From the IMG/VR virus record IMGVR_UViG_3300020048_000003: DNA of 64,000 nt. One strand, given 5' to 3'. Positions 5,693 to 64,000 of this stretch are shown one piece after another. The translations under genes and the position numbers were made by a program. The notes beneath the pieces are model-generated. The model did no database searches. It saw nothing but the letters and a program-made list of their open reading frames with translations, and was not told where the DNA came from. Positions within the stretch are counted from its first letter, which is position 1, and every line of letters begins with the position of its first letter. This stretch comes from a virus.

Positions 5693-5707
5693 TGCAAAGA
5701 TACGGAA
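5693..5707 (-). promoter_or_regulatory. Conserved promoter element TTCCGTATCTTTGCA (Bacteroidetes-type -7 TAnnTTTG)
   Basis: Reverse complement of tgcaaagatacggaa; the same motif recurs upstream of at least 8 other genes. Confidence 0.55.
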
Positions 5708-5725: not shown

Positions 5726-6127
5726 TTATAAATTGTAATTTATCATATCAATTTCTAACTCTGTTGCTTTAACAAAATATTCATTTTTAGAAATTAATTT
5801 ACCTCTTTTATATGCTGAACTATCTCTTATCAAAGCAAAATAATACCAGAACGTTTTTAGTTTTTCATATTTATTCTCATAAATAAGAACTCTGATTTTA
5901 TATCCTTGATCACTAGTTATATAACAAGATAGAGAATCAGAGTCAGTATCATTTTGCTCTGGATTTATGTCTTCTATTTTGTATAATTTATCTTTAGTTG
6001 TATCAAAAAATATTTGGTGTATACCCGTAGGTAATTCATCAAACCAATATGCAGGAAAACCAGTACTAGGTTTCCTCCATATTGCAACTTTACATTTGAT
6101 ATAATCACCTACTTTATAATTGTTCAT
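5726..6127 (-). CDS. Fam-A-like small protein (ends ...MINYNL), KVGDYIKCKV barrel core
   Basis: C-terminal YNL junction motif; ATGA overlap with the downstream gene. Confidence 0.65.
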   Translation of the reverse strand: MNNYKVGDYIKCKVAIWRKPSTGFPAYWFDELPTGIHQIFFDTTKDKLYKIEDINPEQNDTDSDSLSCYITSDQGYKIRVLIYENKYEKLKTFWYYFALIRDSSAYKRGKLISKNEYFVKATELEIDMINYNL

Positions 6128-6744
6128 AACGCTAACTTATTAGGAATTACTTTTTTATTCATCCAATGTTCACTTGTTTGAACATGGTTTTCTCTAACCC
6201 ATTTAGCAACAGATGTATCAAAATCTTCAAAATTGAAACTATCTGCTAATCTGATTACATAACCTTCGTGCTTTTCAGTATCAAGTTTATAATTTCTAAG
6301 GAAGTTTTCATCAAATGTCCCACGCCATAAAACAGGTACCAGAGTTAATCCTAAGAGATTACACCACTCTTCAGTTTCATCCCAAGATAAGCATTCATTT
6401 TTTTCGTTCCAGATGGAGAACACTTGAAAATAACTCGTTAAATTGTTGTAACCAAGTGAATGTTCGGCATAAAGATTTTCACCACAAATACGCCAATCTT
6501 CTGGTATATTGTAACATATTGTACTCCAAAAACCTTTTAACCAATGTCTTGATGGATGATCAACACTATCTAATGAACGAGCGTGTGTATAATCTCTTGA
6601 AATTGTGGTATTTTCCCCGTCCATTTTTTCGGTCATTACAATTTCTTTTCCATGAAAGTGTGCAACAGATGATAATTTCTTATCGTCTGATGTAACACCT
6701 TGACTGAAAGGTAAATGATATGTACGAGGATATTTTGTTTTCAT
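6124..6744 (-). CDS. ATP-dependent RNA-ligase-like nucleotidyltransferase (Rnl family)
   Basis: N-terminal KYPRTYHLPFS followed by a KxDGxN motif-I-like sequence (EKMDGEN). Confidence 0.45.
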   Translation of the reverse strand: MKTKYPRTYHLPFSQGVTSDDKKLSSVAHFHGKEIVMTEKMDGENTTISRDYTHARSLDSVDHPSRHWLKGFWSTICYNIPEDWRICGENLYAEHSLGYNNLTSYFQVFSIWNEKNECLSWDETEEWCNLLGLTLVPVLWRGTFDENFLRNYKLDTEKHEGYVIRLADSFNFEDFDTSVAKWVRENHVQTSEHWMNKKVIPNKLAL

Positions 6745-54976: not shown

Positions 54977-55437
54977 ATATTATATTTTTTTGCATCTTTT
55001 TTGATTTGAAAATTTTCAATATCTGATTTAATTTCTTCTTTTACTTTTTTTACTTTTTTAATAAATTTTTTTGTCTTGAAATCATAATTCTCATTCTCAT
55101 TAAATTCTATATTTTCAACCTGTTCAACAAATTTAGTAAAATCATCTGTTACAAATATAATATTACATTCGTGAACAAATAGAGTCAAAGGTTCTAAATC
55201 AGGTTCGTGTTCATTATTATGTGCTAATTCCTTTAATTCTTTTTCATTTAGATCTGATAATAGTTTTATCAAAAATACTTTTCTATCATCATAAATGTAA
55301 TCTGTATAATTTTGAACTACAATACCATACAAATGAAACCAAAAAACATTATCTTTACCGGTATTATCGCCTAAGATAACATATTGACCTTCTTTTATAT
55401 TGTATAGTTCAAATTCAAATAATTTTAAATATTTCAT
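54973..55437 (-). CDS. Fam-A protein (MKYLKLFE...AKKYNI)
   Basis: Termini. Confidence 0.75.
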   Translation of the reverse strand: MKYLKLFEFELYNIKEGQYVILGDNTGKDNVFWFHLYGIVVQNYTDYIYDDRKVFLIKLLSDLNEKELKELAHNNEHEPDLEPLTLFVHECNIIFVTDDFTKFVEQVENIEFNENENYDFKTKKFIKKVKKVKEEIKSDIENFQIKKDAKKYNI

Positions 55438-55482
55438 ATAACAATTATATATAAAAATAATTTTTAAATTTATATATAGTGT

Positions 55483-56379
55483 ATGATAATAAGATTTAAT
55501 AAGTATGAATTAGTTGAAGAAAAATTAAACATAAATTTCGGCAATTTAATAAATTGTGTGCTTATTTATTTTGCATTTTTTAATGGATTGGATGATACAA
55601 AGCAGATTAAAATATCGGAGGTTATTAAATATACCAAAAATTTTGATATTAAAAACAATGATAAAATAGTTAAAGACGCTCTTAACGATATGAAAGATAA
55701 AGTGTTAAGTGATGATAAAATTCTTAATAAGAAAGAAGTTGTTGCGTATTTGGATTCTATTGCAATAGTTAGAAAAAAAGATGATAAAATCTCAAAAGCT
55801 ATGTATGGACTTTCTACCTCAAATGGTACAAAAGCATCATCTTTTGCAATATCATTAGATAAAAGTGATTTTGGATATAATTGTGATATGATTTTCTTAG
55901 ATGATGATGCAGATTATAATGAAATTATACATGAATTAACTCATGTTATAAAAAATCACATGAAATTAAATACAAGTTTAGATTTTGAAAAATTATTTAA
56001 TTTTAATAAATCAGTTAGACAGCAAAAAAAAGATATAAAGGTTTTAACAGGTGGACTTTTTGAGTATTCAATAGATACAAAGAAAGAATCTGAATTTATA
56101 GAATATATACAGACACCATCAGAATTATATTCAAGACTAACAAGTTTCAAAATGTTTTTATATAAAAGAGGATATTTGAAAACTCCAAATGAAGACTTCT
56201 CACCACAGTTAATTAGAAGAATAACTAATGGTAGTTTGTATGCAGGTATGTCAGCAAGAGATAGACATTTATTTATAAATTCTGATTTCCTTGATATTTT
56301 ATTGTTTATTGACAGAACAAAAATTCATATGTTGGATCAATTTGTTCAAAATATTTCTAAAAATAATGATTTAGCATGA
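55483..56379 (+). CDS. Hypothetical protein with an HExxH motif (possible Zn-metallopeptidase)
   Basis: IIHELTHVI; no other diagnostic motifs seen. Confidence 0.4.
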   Translation: MIIRFNKYELVEEKLNINFGNLINCVLIYFAFFNGLDDTKQIKISEVIKYTKNFDIKNNDKIVKDALNDMKDKVLSDDKILNKKEVVAYLDSIAIVRKKDDKISKAMYGLSTSNGTKASSFAISLDKSDFGYNCDMIFLDDDADYNEIIHELTHVIKNHMKLNTSLDFEKLFNFNKSVRQQKKDIKVLTGGLFEYSIDTKKESEFIEYIQTPSELYSRLTSFKMFLYKRGYLKTPNEDFSPQLIRRITNGSLYAGMSARDRHLFINSDFLDILLFIDRTKIHMLDQFVQNISKNNDLA

Positions 56380-56843
56380 AGTACTTAAAATTATTTGAAG
56401 ACTATTCAAAAGAAGAAATACGAAATTTTCTGATAAAAGCACAACAAAATTCTCAAATTGATATTAAAACTAATATTGATAATTTAATGGACAATTTATC
56501 AAAAATAAAAAGACCAGAACTTGGAACTTTTGAATATTTCGTAAATAGCGAAGCTAGATTTATATCTGAAGGTGATTATAAACGAATGGGAGAATATATA
56601 GAAGGTTTTAAAAAATTAGGTATAGATGTATCAAAAGTTGAAAAACTCTATCCAAAATTGCTTAGATATAAGACAATTCAATTAAAAGAACTTGATAATT
56701 ACGAACATGGATATTCTCAAAAAGAGAAAGAAAAGAATTTAGATAGATTATATGATGAATTGAATGATTTAGAACCATATAAAGTTCAATTTGACGATGA
56801 AGTAAAAATATTAACAAAAAAAGCAAAACAACTTGATAACTAA
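56376..56843 (+). CDS. Fam-A N-terminal type protein (MKYLKLFEDY...) lacking the KYNL end
   Basis: Ends ..KQLDN* within a degenerate junction. Confidence 0.6.
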   Translation: MKYLKLFEDYSKEEIRNFLIKAQQNSQIDIKTNIDNLMDNLSKIKRPELGTFEYFVNSEARFISEGDYKRMGEYIEGFKKLGIDVSKVEKLYPKLLRYKTIQLKELDNYEHGYSQKEKEKNLDRLYDELNDLEPYKVQFDDEVKILTKKAKQLDN

Positions 56844-57309
56844 ATTATTTGAATTTGTGAGTGGATATATCATATCTTATGAAGATATTAAGAAAAAATT
56901 ATCTAATTATAAGAGTATTACATTTACAGAAGATAAAATTGAATTTATTTTTGATGAACTTTCTAAAGAAACAAATGGTGAATGCTATTATCAATGGAAT
57001 TTAGATAAAATGGTGAACCTCTTTGAGAATTATATAATTAGTTTTTATAAATATAATAGTGATACTGAATATTGGAAAACAGAACCAAAGAAAGAGGATT
57101 TTATCATAACTGATCAAATTATGACAATGACATATAAAAAACTTTTTAGAAAATCTCCCATAAAGTTAGGAACAGGAACTGTTAATATTGAATATTATGA
57201 TAAAAATAGTTATAAAGCATTTAATGTTATAATAGATAAGACTAAACCATTTACAGTTTATATTGACGAAACTACTTTTATAAGAGATGCTGATAAATAT
57301 AATTTATAA
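56833..57309 (+). CDS. Fam-A C-terminal type protein (..ITKLFEF...ADKYNL) with no ATG (TTG start or frameshifted junction)
   Basis: The junction is 'ttgataactaaattatttgaa' instead of 'ttatgaaatatataaaattatttgaa'. The ORF starts at a TTG and overlaps the upstream gene by 11 nt in the +1 frame. Confidence 0.5.
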   Translation: MITKLFEFVSGYIISYEDIKKKLSNYKSITFTEDKIEFIFDELSKETNGECYYQWNLDKMVNLFENYIISFYKYNSDTEYWKTEPKKEDFIITDQIMTMTYKKLFRKSPIKLGTGTVNIEYYDKNSYKAFNVIIDKTKPFTVYIDETTFIRDADKYNL

Positions 57310-57403
57310 TGCCGGATATTGCCGGATATTGCCGGATAAAATCATATTGTTTTGATAATCAAACACTTAATTTTTAGAAAATTGCCGTTAATTGCCGGTT
57401 TCA
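57309..57403. repeat. GC-island tandem repeats: (A)TTGCCGGATA x3, then ATTGCCGTTAATTGCCGGTTTC
   Basis: Five copies of a TTGCCGK core within about 95 bp, in an otherwise AT-rich convergent intergenic region. Confidence 0.7.
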
Positions 57404-57618
57404 TTTTCATCATGTTTTTGCTCAGTAATTTTATGAACGAGTGTCAATATACCCTCAATAGCATGTTCTCTTCTTGATTGACTTAGAGTTTCTTCCATTT
57501 CTAATACTCTATTTATGAGAAACGCAATTTGAACAATGTTTCCTGTTTCAATTAAACTTGAACCAACAAAAATTTCAAGTAGGTTTGTTATTTCTTCCAT
57601 TCTATTACTGACTTTCAT
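57388..57618 (-). CDS. Hypothetical small protein
   Basis: 76-aa ORF; its 3' end overlaps the TTGCCGG repeats. Confidence 0.45.
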   Translation of the reverse strand: MKVSNRMEEITNLLEIFVGSSLIETGNIVQIAFLINRVLEMEETLSQSRREHAIEGILTLVHKITEQKHDENETGN

Positions 57619-57935
57619 ATATTATATTTTCTACATTCATATTCAAATTTCAAATCCATTGTGTACTTATCAAAATCTAAAATAGGTTCCCATTCATCTT
57701 CTGTTTCTTTAAACTTAGTATAAGTTGTTTCCCCTTTATGATGTCTACCAGTTGTAGAATAATGACCATAAGGAATTAAATCTGATGGTTCGCACCATAC
57801 TACCTCAGATTCGTGAATAAAGGTAACTCTATCAACCCAATAGTATGAGCGGTGAGCCGTTATACTCATATCTATTTTTGAATACCAGTATCTACCACCC
57901 CATTTATTTTGCCAATATGTTTTATCTTCTTCCAT
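57615..57935 (-). CDS. Fam-A-like protein (C-terminal ...ECRKYNI)
   Basis: C-terminal junction motif. Confidence 0.55.
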   Translation of the reverse strand: MEEDKTYWQNKWGGRYWYSKIDMSITAHRSYYWVDRVTFIHESEVVWCEPSDLIPYGHYSTTGRHHKGETTYTKFKETEDEWEPILDFDKYTMDLKFEYECRKYNI

Positions 57936-58115
57936 TTACAAAAATAAGGAATAGTTTTAAATAAAAAAACTATTCCTCATTTTCTTTTTTTAGTTGTTCT
58001 AACTTCTTTTTACGTAAGTATTGCTCTATGATTTTTAAATCTACTGTTTCAAGTATAGCATAAGGATCATATTCTTCCTCGACACCAACACCATCATCCC
58101 AAAAGAAACTATCTT

Positions 58116-58790
58116 CTATTCCCATATTACATCATTATTTTCTTTATTCCATTCAATTGTTAATGGTTGATTAGCATAATTATATTGCTCATTCAACACA
58201 GAAGCATTAAAGAAATGTGTGTTACCATTTGTGGTATATCCATAACCACTATGAACATGACCACAAACATGTATTTTTGGCTTAATTAAATCAATTCTTT
58301 CTCTCAATATCTCACAACCTTTATGAGAATTATCACCAATCATTGTGTCAAGATATCCAAATACAGGTCCATGAGTTATAAGTATGTCGGTATCAGCAGG
58401 AATTTGATTCCATTTATCAACCATTTCTTGGCTATTTCTTTCAATATTGAAAGCCCAATTTAAAAATTTTGGTTGATATGGTGAACCATATATTTTGACA
58501 AGATTAGGATGTTCACCAATATAAACAAAATCATCTTCAAGATAGATAACATCATATTCTTTTAGAAGTTCTTGAATTTTTGAAGGATTATCTTGAAAGA
58601 AAAAATCGTGATTACCAGCAACCAATATCTTATAAGTATATGGTAATTTATTATACCACTTTAAGAAGTTTTTTATCTCATGTTCATATCCCATGCTTGA
58701 TATATCACCAGCACATATAACTACATCACCACCAGGTAAATGTAGTTGTTTTTGTTTGTTGTGTGTGTCAGAGATAAAAGTTATTTTCAT
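58116..58790 (-). CDS. Calcineurin-like metallophosphoesterase
   Basis: MKITFISDTH...GDIS...GNHD...GHVH. Start set at the Met adjacent to the promoter motif. Confidence 0.8.
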   Translation of the reverse strand: MKITFISDTHNKQKQLHLPGGDVVICAGDISSMGYEHEIKNFLKWYNKLPYTYKILVAGNHDFFFQDNPSKIQELLKEYDVIYLEDDFVYIGEHPNLVKIYGSPYQPKFLNWAFNIERNSQEMVDKWNQIPADTDILITHGPVFGYLDTMIGDNSHKGCEILRERIDLIKPKIHVCGHVHSGYGYTTNGNTHFFNASVLNEQYNYANQPLTIEWNKENNDVIWE

Positions 58791-58805
58791 AAGGCAAAGA
58801 TAGGG
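58791..58805 (-). promoter_or_regulatory. Conserved promoter element (CCCTATCTTTGCCTT) abutting the ATG (leaderless)
   Basis: aaggcaaagataggg lies immediately 5' of the 58790 start. Confidence 0.5.
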
Positions 58806-58824
58806 AATTAATTTAAAAGAAAAA

Positions 58825-58851
58825 AGCCGCAATTTTACTTGCGGCTTTTTT
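58825..58851. terminator. Bidirectional intrinsic terminator
   Basis: aaaaaagccgcaattttacttgcggctttttt. Confidence 0.7.
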
Positions 58852-59078
58852 AGACAAAAACAGAATAATCAAAAGTACTCAATAAACCAGCATTCAATAG
58901 TATTTATATCTAAAAAAATTTCAATAGTTTAATAAAAGTTACCCTCGTGTCTCCAATAAGTAACGAATAAACTTATTTGATAATCAACATTGCGTTACCC
59001 CCGTGTCTCCAGTAAGTAACTTTATATAGTTTTTGTTTTTAGTTAAAAATTAGTTGTTACTAGTTATTGTTTCAATCA
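58852..59078 (-). ncRNA. Candidate about 230-nt non-coding transcript (promoter to terminator, no ORF) carrying two 27-nt direct repeats GTTACCCYCGTGTCTCCARTAAGTAAC
   Basis: The promoter motif at 59081-59096 points leftward and a terminator sits at 58825-58851. The repeats lie at 58938-58964 and 58994-59020, each with 5-bp inverted ends (GTTAC/GTAAC). The ORF track lists no ORF here. Confidence 0.4.
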
Positions 59079-59080
59079 GA

Positions 59081-59096
59081 GTACAAAGATAGGGAA
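59081..59096 (-). promoter_or_regulatory. Conserved promoter element (GTTCCCTATCTTTGTAC)
   Basis: gtacaaagatagggaac. Confidence 0.5.
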
Positions 59097-59212
59097 CATT
59101 CTTGAATAAAAAAAATTATTTGAAAAAATAATTAAACAATCTGTAAATAGTTAGTAATATGCCTGTTATAAACAATATTATAGCACTATATGCGATTGTG
59201 TTGAATATTCCT

Positions 59213-59407
59213 TTACCTGTTATTTTCTTCATGTGCTTTATCCATTAAATATTTTGCAAACCATAGTCCATATACTACACTTATCGTTAATAGAATAAAC
59301 CAAATCCAAGTGTTATTCTTGATTGCTATGTTACCTAATGATAGACCTAATAATAGTCCCATAAATAAGTGTATTGATTCTAAAAATTTTTCTATTTTCT
59401 TTCTCAT
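59213..59407 (-). CDS. Small membrane protein (2 TM)
   Basis: Hydrophobic helices. Confidence 0.5.
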   Translation of the reverse strand: MRKKIEKFLESIHLFMGLLLGLSLGNIAIKNNTWIWFILLTISVVYGLWFAKYLMDKAHEENNR

Positions 59408-59420
59408 ATTACTTGATTTG

Positions 59421-59579
59421 TTAAGATATTAAACTAACTGCTAACCAAATCAATCCACAAATTACAAGAGCAAGTACAAATGTACCTAATGCAATTAAAA
59501 AACTAGTTTGAACCATCATTCCAACAAATATTACACCGAATACTAAAGCTAGTATAAACCAACCAAAAAATTTTTTCAT
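59421..59579 (-). CDS. Unlisted 52-aa membrane mini-protein (MKKFFGWFILALVFGVIF...)
   Basis: Hand translation; ATGA overlap with the upstream gene. Confidence 0.4.
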   Translation of the reverse strand: MKKFFGWFILALVFGVIFVGMMVQTSFLIALGTFVLALVICGLIWLAVSLIS

Positions 59580-59938
59580 CTTACTGTTATTACGTTTTTA
59601 TTTGTTAATTTATTTATATAATCCTTTACAAGGTAAAATCCATCACTAACATTTGAATGTTGATTATCATATTTACAATAAAGTAATTTTTTAAATTCAC
59701 CTTTTGATATACTATTCCATTCATCACGAATCTTATCAATATCTGATATACGAATAACAATGTCATAATCGTAAATACCATCCACATATTTATCAATAAC
59801 AGCAACCATAGAATCGTTATTTTTAGTGATAAATTTCGTTAATTTATTTTTCATTGTACCTAATCTAATGGTATTGAATAAAACTACACCAAAAGCTACT
59901 GCGGCACCTAAAGCGGCTAAAATTAATAAGATTGTCAT
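59576..59938 (-). CDS. N-terminally TM-anchored protein
   Basis: MTILLILAALGAAVAFGVVLF. Confidence 0.55.
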   Translation of the reverse strand: MTILLILAALGAAVAFGVVLFNTIRLGTMKNKLTKFITKNNDSMVAVIDKYVDGIYDYDIVIRISDIDKIRDEWNSISKGEFKKLLYCKYDNQHSNVSDGFYLVKDYINKLTNKNVITVR

Positions 59939-59939
59939 G

Positions 59940-60170
59940 TTATTTTACTTTTAGTTTCTTTATTACATTTATTGTAAACCAGATTATTCCAATGCCATAT
60001 ACACCGAGAAAAATTGTTGCTACTGTGTTTGGAGCGCCATTAAAAAATCCTAAATTGAATCCCAATTTTAGTATTGCAAAAGAATACATTAAATATGTAA
60101 CAATTGCAATAAGTAGCATACCTTTGTAAAAGATTCTACCTTGTTCATTTAATACCCTTTTCTCTTTCAT
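59940..60170 (-). CDS. Small membrane protein (2-3 TM)
   Basis: Promoter motif 10 nt upstream; the antisense ORF 59932..60129 is rejected. Confidence 0.5.
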   Translation of the reverse strand: MKEKRVLNEQGRIFYKGMLLIAIVTYLMYSFAILKLGFNLGFFNGAPNTVATIFLGVYGIGIIWFTINVIKKLKVK

Positions 60171-60183
60171 AGTTTTGAATTAG

Positions 60184-60199
60184 AATACAAAGATAGGGA
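60184..60199 (-). promoter_or_regulatory. Conserved promoter element (CTTCCCTATCTTTGTAT)
   Basis: atacaaagatagggaag. Confidence 0.5.
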
Positions 60200-60219
60200 A
60201 GTTTTTTGAAATAAAAAAA

Positions 60220-61095
60220 TTATCTACAATTAAATACATCTTGTCTTGGAACACCACCAAATAATAATATTAAAGCATTACCAAAACTTTCTTTATAAGG
60301 AGTACCATTATCTCTGGCTCTTATGTTTAATGTATACCTATCATTAGTTTTCATCCAAGTATTTATTGCTGATACATTATTGATTGTAATATCTCCTGAT
60401 GTACCATTAATTTTAAATGCTGTTGAATAGTTACCAGACATTATATAATAATTCAAGGTTTGAATTGTTGTATTTTTATTATCAGGATCTGTTGCAATCA
60501 TTTTACCTATAAGTTTACCATTAGTCATATTAAGTATTCTAATGGTTCTCATAGTATCTGCTAAAATCACAGTATTACCGTTTACTTTTGTTGAATATCT
60601 CAACCTAACGACTAACATGTATCTCCAGCCATAAGCATCAATAGCTGTTTGATTGTTGATAAAGATTGCACCGACATTAGGATCAATGGTGAATGCTGTT
60701 GATGGATTACCAGACATTATATAAAAGTTGATAGATTGTCCATTTGGTACAGGATTGACCCTTATTTCATTAACTAATTTTGCATATTGTGGTGTAATAT
60801 TAAATGTAACCATTGAATCTCTTATGATTACATTATTTTTAGAATATCTCAATCTTATACTTAATGAATAATTCCAGCCATGTGAATTAATAGCATTCTG
60901 ATTGTTAATGAATAGTTCACCAGTTTTAGCATCTAATTTAAATGCTGTTGATGGATTACCAGACATTATATTAAAATTTAATGATTGTCCAGTAGGAATA
61001 GGATTAATTTTTACTTGCCCCATATATTTACCATTCTGAGAAAATACAGATGTGGTAAATAAAAGGGCAAATAAAAATAATACAAATTTATTCAT
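60220..61095 (-). CDS. Secreted protein with three about 95-aa cadherin-like repeats
   Basis: Signal peptide; internal repeat NPIPTGQSLNFNIMSGNPSTAF..D...G.(I/L)FINNQ.AI...GW.Y.L..RLRYS occurs three times; C-terminal ...NIRARDNGTP is a cadherin-type ARDxGxP motif. Confidence 0.55.
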   Translation of the reverse strand: MNKFVLFLFALLFTTSVFSQNGKYMGQVKINPIPTGQSLNFNIMSGNPSTAFKLDAKTGELFINNQNAINSHGWNYSLSIRLRYSKNNVIIRDSMVTFNITPQYAKLVNEIRVNPVPNGQSINFYIMSGNPSTAFTIDPNVGAIFINNQTAIDAYGWRYMLVVRLRYSTKVNGNTVILADTMRTIRILNMTNGKLIGKMIATDPDNKNTTIQTLNYYIMSGNYSTAFKINGTSGDITINNVSAINTWMKTNDRYTLNIRARDNGTPYKESFGNALILLFGGVPRQDVFNCR

Positions 61096-61097
61096 AA

Positions 61098-61694
61098 TTA
61101 AAATTTTACTTCTGGTGCTTTTTGTGCAGATTCATCAGCTTCAAAGTATGGAAGTTTGTCAAAACCTAACATACTTGCAAATAATACAACAGGGAACTTT
61201 CGCCTTGCATTATTATATTGATTTGCGGCTTCATTAAAATTCCTTCGTTCCACATTAATTCGGTTTTCTGTTCCTTCTAACTGTGCTTGTAATTGTAAGA
61301 AATTTTCATTTGCTTTTAAATTTGGATATTGTTCTACCGAAACTAACAATCTACTAAGAGTTGAACTCATTTCACTCTGAGCCTTTTGAAATTTAGCCAT
61401 TGCGTTAGCATCTAATTTTGAAGGATCTACATTAAGGGTTGTTTTTGTTGCGTTTGCCCTCTGTTCAATAACTCCAATAAGTGTTTTCTGTTCGTGGTCA
61501 GCATATCCCTTTACCACATTCACAAGGTTTGGAATAAGGTCCGCCCTTCGTTGATATGCTCCCTGAACATCTGCCCATTTGTTGTTTGCATTTTCTTGGA
61601 ATTTAACTAGTCCATTATATGAACCAATCACCCCCATAATTGCTAATCCAATTGCTCCTAATACTACAATTAATACAATCCATCCTGTTTTCAT
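61098..61694 (-). CDS. lemA: LemA family protein
   Basis: N-terminal TM then YNGLVKFQENANNKWADVQGAYQRRADLIPNLVNVVKGYADHE is the LemA signature. Confidence 0.8.
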   Translation of the reverse strand: MKTGWIVLIVVLGAIGLAIMGVIGSYNGLVKFQENANNKWADVQGAYQRRADLIPNLVNVVKGYADHEQKTLIGVIEQRANATKTTLNVDPSKLDANAMAKFQKAQSEMSSTLSRLLVSVEQYPNLKANENFLQLQAQLEGTENRINVERRNFNEAANQYNNARRKFPVVLFASMLGFDKLPYFEADESAQKAPEVKF

Positions 61695-61746
61695 AATTTT
61701 TCTGTTTTTAGTTTAAGTTATTTATATTTAATTTTTATTTAATTGT

Positions 61747-62229
61747 TTAAGATTTGATTGAATATGTGTTCAAAAATATTTTTCTTGCAACAATCCAAGT
61801 ATCTGTGCTATCAACCCTATCCTGACAAATAAAATCTCCCTCTTTACAGAATTGTCGCAATCCATCTTCATGTTGTTCACCATACTTTCCAAGTATATAT
61901 TCATTTTCTGAACCTATCATTTCTTTTGTGATTTCTACGCAATTTACAGCGTTGTCTGGTTTAGGATTACAGAGCATCCAACCATCTTTATCAATTTCTA
62001 CTACATCATATTTCTGAAGTAATTTCTTTGGCATTTGTTGCCAAACATCACCAGCCTCACCTAAGCAAATAACGACACCATCTTGTAAAGGTTCTTTACC
62101 TTCAATACAATCAACAAGAAATTTACTTGTTACTGACCTATCAACCATTATAGATATTAATGGTTTTGCTCTTACAGATTTAGTCTTAGATGCTAAATTC
62201 CATTTTTTTATTAGTGTTGTGTTTATCAT
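61747..62229 (-). CDS. Hypothetical protein
   Basis: 160-aa ORF. Confidence 0.5.
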   Translation of the reverse strand: MINTTLIKKWNLASKTKSVRAKPLISIMVDRSVTSKFLVDCIEGKEPLQDGVVICLGEAGDVWQQMPKKLLQKYDVVEIDKDGWMLCNPKPDNAVNCVEITKEMIGSENEYILGKYGEQHEDGLRQFCKEGDFICQDRVDSTDTWIVARKIFLNTYSIKS

Positions 62230-62576
62230 AATGATAATGAATTTATTTTTTGTAATTTTTGTTTCCTATATTCTGATAGAGTTATAAAATAAGTATTATA
62301 ACGTTCTATATTCCAACCATTCCAGAATCCAGTATTATTAAGGAGAAATTTATTACCTACCGTACCACCAAAGTAAGTTCTTACATATTCCGAAGGATAA
62401 TAAATATATATTGCATCAGGTGGATCAAATCTAAATTTATATCTATGTCCCTCTTTATATTTAAGAATAGATTTGATACAAACCAATTCTTCTCTTTCGT
62501 TTAATTTACCATTTAGAGCCACTTCCACCTCCTCCAAATTTACCGCCACCAAAGCCACCACTTTTACCTCCACCAC
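62226..62576 (-). CDS. Fam-B small protein (tail YRKQKLQKINSLSL); true start probably downstream of 62506
   Basis: The N-terminal 23 aa overlap the Gly-rich end of the TPM gene in another frame. Confidence 0.45.
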   Translation of the reverse strand: MVEVKVVALVAVNLEEVEVALNGKLNEREELVCIKSILKYKEGHRYKFRFDPPDAIYIYYPSEYVRTYFGGTVGNKFLLNNTGFWNGWNIERYNTYFITLSEYRKQKLQKINSLSL

Positions 62577-63222
62577 CTCTCATAAGTCCTAAAAACAACA
62601 ATTGAAGTGCCAAATCTGGTGAGAATATAAACAATATAATCCAAAGTACTATAATGATTATCCAAACATACCAAGGTACATTATCAATCATCCAACCAAT
62701 TATACTTTCTTCTTTTCCTTCTTCGTTTTTCTTTATTAATTCTTTATTAGTATCTTGTGAATATTCATAACCAATTTTGTTTTTTACTTTATCAATTACA
62801 TCAAGTGTACCTTCAAAATATTTACCTGGATATGCCTTCGTGACACTATCTTGAATCCCTTTTAGCCAACCATCTGGAAGATAACCCTCTAAACCATAAC
62901 CAGTTGAACACCATATAAGTTTTTTAGTTTTAGATACAACAATTAAAAGACCATTATCTACATCTTTTTTACCAATCCCCCAAGATTCTGCTGTTTTCTG
63001 TGAAAAATCAGCAATATCACTTTCAAAATCCGATACTGTTAACACAGCAATTTCAATTGAAGTTTCAGCCTCATAATCAGTAAGAATTTTTGTGAGTTGA
63101 GCATTTTGCTCTGGAGTGAAAACATTATCATAATCAGATACATAACCTTTACTTTTTGGTAAGGTTTGACTGAATGATAAGAAAGTTAATAAAATAAAGA
63201 AAAGTGTGATTAATTTTTTCAT
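62506..63222 (-). CDS. TPM-domain protein (TLP18.3/Psb32/MOLO-1 family phosphatase-like) with a C-terminal TM and Gly-rich tail
   Basis: Signal peptide MKKLITLFFILLTFLSFSQ; ..YVSDYDNVFTPEQ...IEIAVLTV...GIGKKDVDNGLLIVVSKTKKLIWCSTGYGLEG. It sits next to LemA, the typical LemA-TPM pairing. Confidence 0.75.
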   Translation of the reverse strand: MKKLITLFFILLTFLSFSQTLPKSKGYVSDYDNVFTPEQNAQLTKILTDYEAETSIEIAVLTVSDFESDIADFSQKTAESWGIGKKDVDNGLLIVVSKTKKLIWCSTGYGLEGYLPDGWLKGIQDSVTKAYPGKYFEGTLDVIDKVKNKIGYEYSQDTNKELIKKNEEGKEESIIGWMIDNVPWYVWIIIIVLWIILFIFSPDLALQLLFLGLMRGGGGKSGGFGGGKFGGGGSGSKW

Positions 63223-63241
63223 ATTTGAGAATGGTTTTGGA

Positions 63242-63568
63242 TTATACATTATATTTATCACAAGTAGCTTTATATTTTGCTTCATTTGCCTTAACAAGTG
63301 CAAAAGTTTTTGCCAATTCTTTGTTTACCTGATCATACAAACCAGAAGGAAAATCTGACATATTTCCCTTTTCATCAACTGTGATTTTTTTATCTTTCCA
63401 AAGAAAGTAATATTTATCAGTTACTTCGTTCAAAAGCATCTGATTACGAAATTTATTAAATTCGTGCTCATTGTTGATTAAGCCAACAAATTCACTTGTT
63501 TTTTCACCTGTGATTTTGTATGCCTCAACTTTTGGAGTCTTATATCTTTCAATTACAATTTCTTTCAT
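63242..63568 (-). CDS. Hypothetical protein
   Basis: Promoter motif 13 nt upstream. Confidence 0.55.
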   Translation of the reverse strand: MKEIVIERYKTPKVEAYKITGEKTSEFVGLINNEHEFNKFRNQMLLNEVTDKYYFLWKDKKITVDEKGNMSDFPSGLYDQVNKELAKTFALVKANEAKYKATCDKYNV

Positions 63569-63580
63569 GACTTTTTTATT

Positions 63581-63594
63581 TGATACTGCAAAGA
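63581..63594 (-). promoter_or_regulatory. Conserved promoter element (TTCCCTATCTTTGC)
   Basis: gcaaagatagggaa. Confidence 0.5.
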
Positions 63595-63610
63595 TAGGGA
63601 AAATATCCGA

Positions 63611-63973
63611 TTAAAAAATATTTTTAAGTTTATTTAATTTTTCCTTTCTGAGTAATGTTTCTATTTTTAAAGCTCGTGGTAGCTTATTGTGTATGAAATA
63701 TCTATCTAGATTATAGTAATAATGATTTAATTCTTCTTCCCATGATGTAACATTTAATAATTTTTCTCTTGTAAGTTCACCTGTATTATTTTCAAGTAAT
63801 ATTTTTACTTTATTTATAACATGTTGAACAACTTTTTGGTCTGATATAAAATGTTGATGTTCTGGATCCATGCTATCCAGAATCTTTTCAAATTCGGCAA
63901 TTAAATATTTATTATACTTTTCGTATATATCAGTAGGATATATAACGGAATTATCTTTATATACTGCTATCAT
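63611..63973 (-). CDS. Fam-B small protein (tail LRKEKLNKLKNIF)
   Basis: Tail. Confidence 0.6.
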   Translation of the reverse strand: MIAVYKDNSVIYPTDIYEKYNKYLIAEFEKILDSMDPEHQHFISDQKVVQHVINKVKILLENNTGELTREKLLNVTSWEEELNHYYYNLDRYFIHNKLPRALKIETLLRKEKLNKLKNIF

Positions 63974-64000
63974 TTATCTTATCTAATTTTAATTTTCTAT

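Follow-up and report, generated by a model that had tools for sequence, protein, structure and literature searches.

A candidate twin-hairpin small RNA in the largest non-coding gap of a metagenomic jumbo phage-like sequence

The 64,000-nt stretch of IMG/VR virus record IMGVR_UViG_3300020048_000003 (hereafter the window, meaning that stretch at its full length) contains a 325-nt non-coding gap at positions 58791-59115, the largest in the window, with the next largest spanning 192 nt. Judged from its sequence, this gap looks like a complete stand-alone transcription unit on the minus strand, in which a promoter is followed by about 255 nt free of open reading frames (ORFs) and by an intrinsic terminator, and two near-identical 27-nt repeats inside the unit can fold as hairpins. 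The elements themselves, the strand-specific foldability of the repeats, the single compensatory pair that distinguishes the two copies and the absence of ORFs are direct observations. The explanation that we tentatively prefer, and that we regard as plausible if a little short of an even chance, is that the locus encodes a stand-alone phage small RNA (sRNA) of ~255 nt whose twin hairpins bind a protein.

We observe no ORF of at least 20 aa inside 58833-59115 in any frame, and the longest ATG ORFs within the predicted transcript comprise 4-5 codons. On the minus strand, which carries every gene near the gap, the order of elements is the end of the upstream operon, a T-tract with the promoter, an A/C-rich leader of ~63 nt, hairpin A, a spacer, hairpin B, ~86 nt of AU-rich sequence, the terminator, a second copy of the promoter and the ATG of a metallophosphoesterase gene (Table 1). 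The two repeats, GTTACCCTCGTGTCTCCAATAAGTAAC at 58938-58964 and GTTACCCCCGTGTCTCCAGTAAGTAAC at 58994-59020 (both read on the plus strand), are identical at 25 of 27 positions and form a layout of 27-nt repeat, 29-nt spacer and 27-nt repeat with a period of 56 bp; their GC contents (0.44 and 0.52) stand out from those of the gap (~0.27) and of the window (~0.25). They are the sole two matches in the window even when 3 mismatches are allowed (0 expected, 100 shuffles), and a covariance model made from the two repeats (R1) found no third copy in the window nor in the 10 kb beyond each window end. The spacer has no similarity to the sequence after hairpin B, and the arrangement is therefore repeat-spacer-repeat rather than a tandem repeat. 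A 747-bp contig (L008, ENA ERZ27262927) is identical to window positions 58962-59520 and stops two bases into the second repeat, either by chance or because strains start to differ there.

A preliminary description of this segment had listed a left-pointing promoter and a hairpin terminator as its borders, no ORF in between, and two near-identical 27-nt elements that are GC-richer than their surroundings. All of these are borne out, with the elements lying exactly where they had been placed, the promoter belonging to a real six-copy family and the terminator combining 13 pairs with a T-run; the structured RNA suggested there has no small protein gene in the segment to compete with it.

The promoter core, a 13-mer, occurs in four exact copies in the window, clustered in 58-64 kb, while the wider CC[CG]TATCTTTG class has six members, all on the minus strand and each with an upstream T-tract. 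Downstream of each of the other five members, an ATG ORF is found within 4-35 nt. The published consensus of the Bacteroidota -7 promoter element, which is paired with a -33 element, is TAnnTTTG, and we take TATCTTTG in the window promoters to be a -7 box of this Bacteroidota type. In line with such a promoter, the box lies a few nt before the predicted start and recurs before genes in the window, and the same motif type is found before genes in related phage contigs (L110-L117). Furthermore, 59070-59119 is 84% identical over 50 nt to 60174-60223, which comprises the promoter and 5' untranslated region (UTR) of a 76-aa gene at 60170, and the identity includes the first ~16 nt of the predicted transcript; near the position of that gene's ATG, the non-coding RNA (ncRNA) unit reads ATA. 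Because of this identity in promoter and 5' UTR, and the ATA where the gene at 60170 has its ATG, the comparison suggests a promoter duplication as the origin of the ncRNA unit. The 735-kb uncultured phages LR756501 and LR756503 match a 58-nt stretch around the promoter copy at 60188 with 85% identity.

The predicted transcript was delimited by placing its start a few nt past the -7 box and its 3' end in the T-run of the terminator. The terminator is bidirectional in form, with an A-run ahead of the stem and a U-run behind it, and is the strongest terminator-like site in 55000-64000. No terminator-like site precedes any of the other promoters of the class in 58-64 kb, which fits a terminator that sets the 3' end of an sRNA. 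The whole 259-nt RNA has a predicted minimum free energy (MFE) of -53.8 kcal/mol, compared with -40.1 +/- 4.1 kcal/mol for shuffled sequences (z = -3.33), and neither the MFE nor the centroid structure of this full-length RNA disrupts hairpin A or hairpin B.

With respect to the hairpins, each copy forms 10 pairs, every one of them standard, and has an apical loop that contains GGAGACA. As minus-strand RNA, hairpin A reaches -7.5 kcal/mol (z = -3.0) and hairpin B -5.9 kcal/mol (z = -3.0), against -1.4 kcal/mol (z = -0.8) and -1.2 kcal/mol, respectively, for the plus-strand versions, which are no better than shuffles. The hairpins are stable on the transcribed strand only, because the three G.U pairs turn into A.C mismatches on the opposite one. 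The copies differ only at position 9 (C/U) and position 20 (G/A), and these two positions form one pair, which is altered on both sides from C-G to U-A; in simulations, two random substitutions rarely hit one pair and keep it paired (p 0.012-0.02). Positions 9 and 20 pair only with A8 bulged, the partner of position 9 in an ungapped duplex DNA dyad being position 19, and this bulge-dependent pairing, together with the strand-specific G.U pairs, is more in keeping with a hairpin in single-stranded RNA than with a palindromic operator in DNA. The 5-bp inverted ends remarked on in the preliminary description are present, and they turn out to be just the base of a 10-bp bulged hairpin that is formed by the minus-strand RNA only. 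Halves of A and B could alternatively pair with each other.

In the protein-binding explanation, a Bacteroidota-type phage promoter would start a minus-strand RNA near 59080, and the intrinsic terminator would end it near 58820. The functional core would be the two bulged 27-nt hairpins with the 29-nt unique spacer between them, and these hairpins would be paired binding or processing sites for a hairpin-recognizing protein, which may come from the host or from the part of the phage genome outside the 84 kb examined here (the window and 10 kb past each end). The RNA would then act as a decoy, sponge or guide-like RNA by capturing or loading this protein and not by long antisense pairing. Antisense action on start regions in the window was considered and rejected, since the best duplex with the 136 translation-initiation regions (-26.9 kcal/mol) is no better than those of 30 shuffled controls (-25.3 to -33.6 kcal/mol). 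A 17-nt complementarity of the spacer to 59656-59672 was likewise set aside, as it does not extend and is at chance level. As the start regions of the window yielded no outstanding antisense target and the two hairpins make up the conserved part, a protein-binding mode is favored over base-pairing, in which the RNA would be a bivalent hairpin ligand and serve as a decoy, sponge or loading substrate. Protein binding and any biological role of the twin-hairpin RNA are inferred. The structured small RNA with two hairpin copies that had been put forward in the preliminary description comes out as the best-supported reading, with indirect support from the bracketing promoter and terminator, the strand-specific folds, the compensatory pair and the fold of the whole RNA (z = -3.3).

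Several observations weigh against this explanation. The covariation, if suggestive, is a single event between two copies, and keeping all pairs after two random changes is not rare in simulations (0.18-0.55). A recent duplication without function could also yield copies whose stems and loops are identical. No homologue of the element was found, so that sequence comparison offers no cross-species covariation: Rfam 15 at gathering scores has no match in the window; the 22-nt repeat core with two free positions gave 0 matches in viral, 185,579-species genome and metagenome collections (the pattern scans of IMG/VR, of 185,579 species-representative GTDB genomes and of JGI metagenomes require exact matches, and diverged repeats could escape them); and a blastn search with the 101-nt core, covering 50,697 phage (INPHARED) and 72,556 plasmid (PLSDB) records, returned nothing at E <= 10. 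In addition, the related loci L110-L120 are without the hairpin, as judged by regular expressions and R1, and their gene order is shuffled. Transcription and the RNA ends are deduced from the promoter and terminator sequences, and no candidate RNA-binding partner was identified among the window proteins.

Table 1. Coordinates of the predicted non-coding unit, its neighbors and the sequences compared with it
Feature	Position	Strand	Remarks
Predicted non-coding transcript, ~255-260 nt	58820..59080	minus	ends inferred from promoter and terminator
Promoter core TTCCCTATCTTTG	59084..59096	minus	-7 box TATCTTTG at 59091->59084; T-tract and -33 region upstream to ~59119
Hairpin A	58994..59020	minus	outer arms GUUACUU and GGGUAAC, bulged A8, inner arms CUG and CGG, hexaloop GAGACA; 10 bp including 3 G.U
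Unique spacer GCAAUGUUGAUUAUCAAAUAAGUUUAUUC, 29 nt	58965..58993	minus	between hairpins A and B
Hairpin B	58938..58964	minus	fold of hairpin A with U9-A20 in place of C9-G20; followed by UUUUAUU
Intrinsic terminator AAAAAAGCCGCAAGUAAAAUUGCGGCUUUUUU	58820..58851	minus	13 pairs; stem GCCGCAAGUAAAAUUGCGGC then U6
Second copy of promoter 13-mer	58795..58807	minus	directly past terminator; last G 4 nt before ATG at 58790
Calcineurin-like metallophosphoesterase, 224 aa	58116..58790	minus	Pfam Metallophos 2.6e-14
End of upstream operon, small predicted membrane proteins	59116..59407	minus	sets upstream limit of non-coding unit
64-aa predicted membrane protein	59213-59407	minus	retained by gene caller
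Candidate 38-aa ORF	59116-59232	minus	clear hydrophobic helix; uncalled by gene caller
Promoter family T-tract...TTCC(C/G)TATCTTTG	5695-5707, 29531-29543, 58795-58807, 59084-59096, 60188-60200, 63589-63601	minus	
Host REP-like hairpin loci	L012, L014, L022, L024, L029, L051, L070, L073, L083 (5600-6060), L091, L093, L035		

On sequence comparison, the element is an orphan with exactly two local copies that matches no described family. A lax Rfam scan of 58700-59250 gave weak sub-threshold matches to the terminator hairpin only and none over the repeats, and no tRNA or tmRNA was found in the window. The GTTAC..loop..GTAAC pattern and two-copy stems with a free loop had no matches in IMG/VR, the only collection scanned with them. 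Two-copy scans with the apical 10-mer (IMG/VR and GTDB genomes) mostly returned coding tandem repeats, for example collagen-like ones, and a stricter two-copy 13-mer scan of the JGI metagenomes returned only unrelated GC-rich or coding repeats. Neighboring genes led to the same picture: the upstream regions of three phosphoesterase relatives (L001, L004 and L005) are unrelated and lack the element; the 106-aa protein encoded two genes downstream has homologues of 55-79% identity in related AT-rich phages (L110-L120), those of 75-79% identity being on short contigs (1-1.6 kb), and none of the fetched related-phage loci preserves the gene order at the ncRNA site; for the upstream 120-aa protein, no useful relatives were found.

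A family of intergenic hairpins resembling repetitive extragenic palindromes (REP-like), of the form GGUUCGUG-GAGA-CACGAACC-AUGGC, is present in Sphingobacteriia, Chitinophagia and Cytophagia genomes. It is multi-copy, with a perfect 8-13-bp stem that co-varies between genera and with copies that frequently lie in tandem at distances of 54-75 nt, and at least 13 of its loci are without an Rfam match. These host hairpins have the apical 10-mer UGGAGACACG in common with the phage hairpins, and the family, too, is from Bacteroidota; its members, however, have a perfect stem and a GAGA (GNRA) tetraloop followed by AUGGC, whereas the phage hairpins are bulged and have a hexaloop. A covariance model from 18 host copies (R2), run on the window with filters off, gave no match at the phage hairpins at E <= 10, and membership of the phage hairpins in this family was rejected. 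Since the common 10-mer was imposed by the query, we regard it as a coincidence.

Among the alternatives to a protein-binding sRNA, we consider first a viral CRISPR-repeat mimic or mini-array (Racr, Cracr or mini-CRISPR), in which the hairpins would imitate the repeats of a CRISPR-Cas system of the host or of the virus itself, the 29-nt spacer would be a guide or filler, and the RNA would load or titrate Cas proteins. The 27-29-27 geometry points in this direction, as do hairpin-forming repeats that start with GTT and end with AAC, as in published solitary repeat units and CRISPR RNA (crRNA)-like RNAs, and an AT-rich leader of ~60 nt behind a promoter without adjacent cas genes, which matches published layouts; the 747-bp contig that ends at the second repeat is an anecdotal addition. 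A promoter is found within ~250 bp upstream, on a mobile element away from cas genes, with the 13-mer lying 63 nt before repeat A. However, no likeness to an identifiable CRISPR-Cas repeat, the defining feature, appeared in the exact-match scans, and no CRISPR array or locus with the repeat core was found in the species-representative genomes or the JGI metagenomes. The two-copy loop scan of genomes returned no CRISPR-like arrays, and the hits of the stricter metagenome scan were unrelated GC-rich repeats. Neither was a protospacer for the spacer found in IMG/VR, INPHARED or PLSDB: full-length matches are absent from the window, the INPHARED phages and the PLSDB plasmids, and the IMG/VR matches are chance 18-mers covering 21-22/29 positions. 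There is no Cas or defense family among the 126 window proteins, the precomputed Pfam annotation of the flanking 20 kb lists no Cas family, and no cas or defense-type partner was seen in the 84 kb. The hairpin also fills the whole repeat, with no nucleotides left over for a handle, and a CRISPR repeat of 27 nt would be a short one. We consider this alternative unlikely, and it is kept at that level because the scans were exact-match and ~200 kb of the genome lies outside the analysis.

Racr, or solitary repeat units, are RNA anti-CRISPRs (PMC10651486), and Cracr are viral crRNA-like RNAs, whose survey reports target CRISPR-Cas loci in Pseudomonadota, Bacillota and Actinomycetota only (bioRxiv 10.1101/2024.10.29.618823). 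Like these, the present element is virus-encoded, intergenic and behind a promoter, has no cas genes nearby, and consists of a small predicted RNA with hairpin-forming direct repeats. Unlike these, which are defined by likeness to a host CRISPR repeat or to CreA/CreR, it came with no such repeat, cas promoter target or protospacer. By analogy, the twin-hairpin RNA most resembles Racr, Cracr and viral mini-arrays in how it may work, and its membership in these groups is unsupported. It would take a fairly improbable further step to see in it the first RNA-based counter-defense element of a Bacteroidota jumbo phage, a decoy or mini-array that hijacks or titrates a hairpin-recognizing host immune protein. 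As targets for that step, to which we give equally little weight, we propose a crRNA-binding protein of the Cas6 or Cas13b kind, or else a so far undescribed system, RNA-guided or RNA-sensing, with repeats that are absent from current genome collections.

The repeats could instead be double-stranded DNA sites (operators, iterons, or partition or packaging sites) for a DNA-binding protein, which we judge to be quite unlikely. The placing of a GC-rich 27-bp direct repeat twice, at a distance of 56 bp, within AT-rich intergenic DNA that has a promoter on either side would suit such sites, and paired protein-binding sites would also keep their sequence. Yet only the 5-bp ends show ungapped dyad symmetry, the covariation of positions 9 and 20 needs the bulged A8, which is meaningless in B-form DNA, and the three G.U pairs make the fold strand-specific. 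Furthermore, the repeats lie at about +60 to +145 inside the transcribed unit, the terminator parts them from the next promoter, and no further copies exist in the 84 kb. The operator pair controlling the phosphoesterase operon, which the preliminary description had offered as its second possibility, is accordingly less likely: its dyad would span only 5 bp, its sites lie inside the unit, and a terminator as well as a separate promoter precede the gene.

Another possibility is a nut- or put-like antitermination leader, in which a polymerase starting at 59094 would be modified at the hairpins and read through the terminator into the phosphoesterase operon, while without the factor only a short RNA would be made, as with the 6S transcript of lambda PR'-tR'. 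Lambdoid late and early leaders consist of a promoter, a hairpin-bearing RNA, a terminator and genes, and the order seen here (promoter, ~230-nt non-coding RNA with hairpins, strong terminator, same-strand genes) is the lambdoid one. The likeness to PR'-tR' 6S extends to a constitutive-looking promoter, a hairpin RNA of ~200-250 nt, a strong terminator and genes on the same strand. The differences from lambda nut and put are that the two hairpins are identical, and not boxA/boxB or put stem-loops, and that the downstream gene is self-promoted. The phosphoesterase gene has its own identical 13-mer promoter right past the terminator, so that read-through would add nothing obvious; moreover, no N- or Q-like protein was recognized in the window, and the hairpins show no likeness to Rfam cis-regulatory families. 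We regard antitermination as improbable.

It is similarly improbable, in our estimate, that the locus is a non-functional remnant, that is, a duplicated promoter and 5' UTR that lost its gene, with a locally duplicated 27-mer and a terminator. The 84% identity of the promoter and first ~16 nt to those of the 60170 gene would be expected of such a remnant, as would the lack of a homologue in any scan. Set against this, the window is ~96% coding and its other gaps are at most 192 nt, which implies that dead DNA is not tolerated elsewhere in it; GC-rich hairpins and a strong GC-rich terminator are kept in a genome of 25% GC, and the sequence is identical in three samples.

Known RNAs with repeated units offer two further comparisons for a protein-binding sRNA. 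CsrB and RsmZ are protein-sponge sRNAs with repeated hairpins that carry GGA in their loops; the present element resembles them as a terminator-ended predicted sRNA with repeated hairpins and an apical GGA, which would suit a dimeric RNA-binding protein at two sites, and differs from them in having two copies only, in copies whose stems are as identical as their loops, and in the lack of an Rfam match. The antitoxin RNAs ToxI, CptI and TenpI consist of head-to-tail tandem repeats of 36-45 nt that are processed by an adjacent endoribonuclease toxin, and phages carry ToxI mimics (pseudo-ToxI). The order of promoter, repeated RNA units, terminator and downstream gene is like that of these type III antitoxins, but a ToxI-like antitoxin was rejected, as a unique spacer separates the repeats and the next gene encodes a Metallophos protein with its own promoter and not an endoribonuclease. 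The template and variable repeats of a diversity-generating retroelement (DGR) and a retron were rejected because the repeats are only 27 nt long, their differences are not adenine-specific, flanking inverted repeats are absent, and no reverse transcriptase is among the 25 most-matched of the 37 Pfam families found.

With respect to the flanking genes, the metallophosphoesterase, whose nearest homologues are ~62% identical and widespread, is a positional neighbor of the ncRNA unit. Its mRNA is probably leaderless or nearly so, because the ATG lies just 4 nt past the last G of the -7 box; this is unlike the other genes with this promoter, which have 17-35-nt leaders. On the upstream side, the 38-aa ORF shares 20 nt with the end of the 64-aa gene and stops just before the ncRNA promoter; the upstream operon may thereby encode a fifth small membrane protein.

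The window has a GC content of ~25% and dense, short and often overlapping ORFs, 134 non-overlapping ones covering ~96% of it. Recognizable products include DNA methyltransferases, an HNH homing endonuclease, an RNA ligase, cREC_REC and CYTH domain proteins, a viperin-like radical-SAM protein, ankyrin-repeat proteins, a major-vault-protein homologue, a LemA / TPM / cadherin-domain cluster and sugar-modifying enzymes. A 209-kb ENA contig contains a sequence identical to the window, and a JGI contig of 286,618 bp is recorded with the same proteins, giving a genome size of at least 286 kb. The gap region is identical across assemblies of three samples (ENA ERZ27262924, ENA ERZ27262927 and Logan SRR7760390, of which ERZ27262927 covers just the 5' part as far as the spacer, hairpin A included), and it is therefore no assembly artifact. 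The window appears to be part of a jumbo phage, or of a phage-like element, with a Bacteroidota host; we treat it as a Bacteroidota phage because of the TAnnTTTG boxes before its genes and the same promoter type on related AT-rich contigs, which also have the same gene repertoire.

Two further features of this phage group were observed. An 809-aa protein (30777-33206, minus strand) combines a major-vault-protein shoulder with repeat domains (1.3e-27), which is unusual for a phage-like genome, and the homologue is kept in related phage contigs L113 (3490-4776) and L117 (1-2287). The RNA ligase is encoded at 6124-6744, and cREC_REC (cyclic-phosphate-processing receiver) and CYTH proteins occur elsewhere in the window and in L110, L113 and L117. 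The recurrence of these proteins hints at an RNA-repair or nucleotide-signaling module in the phage group.

As a single orphan locus in one metagenomic genome, the twin-hairpin unit is a clear, testable candidate rather than a discovery. Very little is known of the ncRNAs that uncultivated giant phages encode, and repeat mimicry by phage RNAs has only recently been recognized as a way to disarm bacterial immunity. Should the RNA predicted here be expressed and bind a host protein, this would indicate an RNA-recognizing system in Bacteroidota and a phage counter-strategy against it, and the RNA would supply a compact, defined hairpin ligand.

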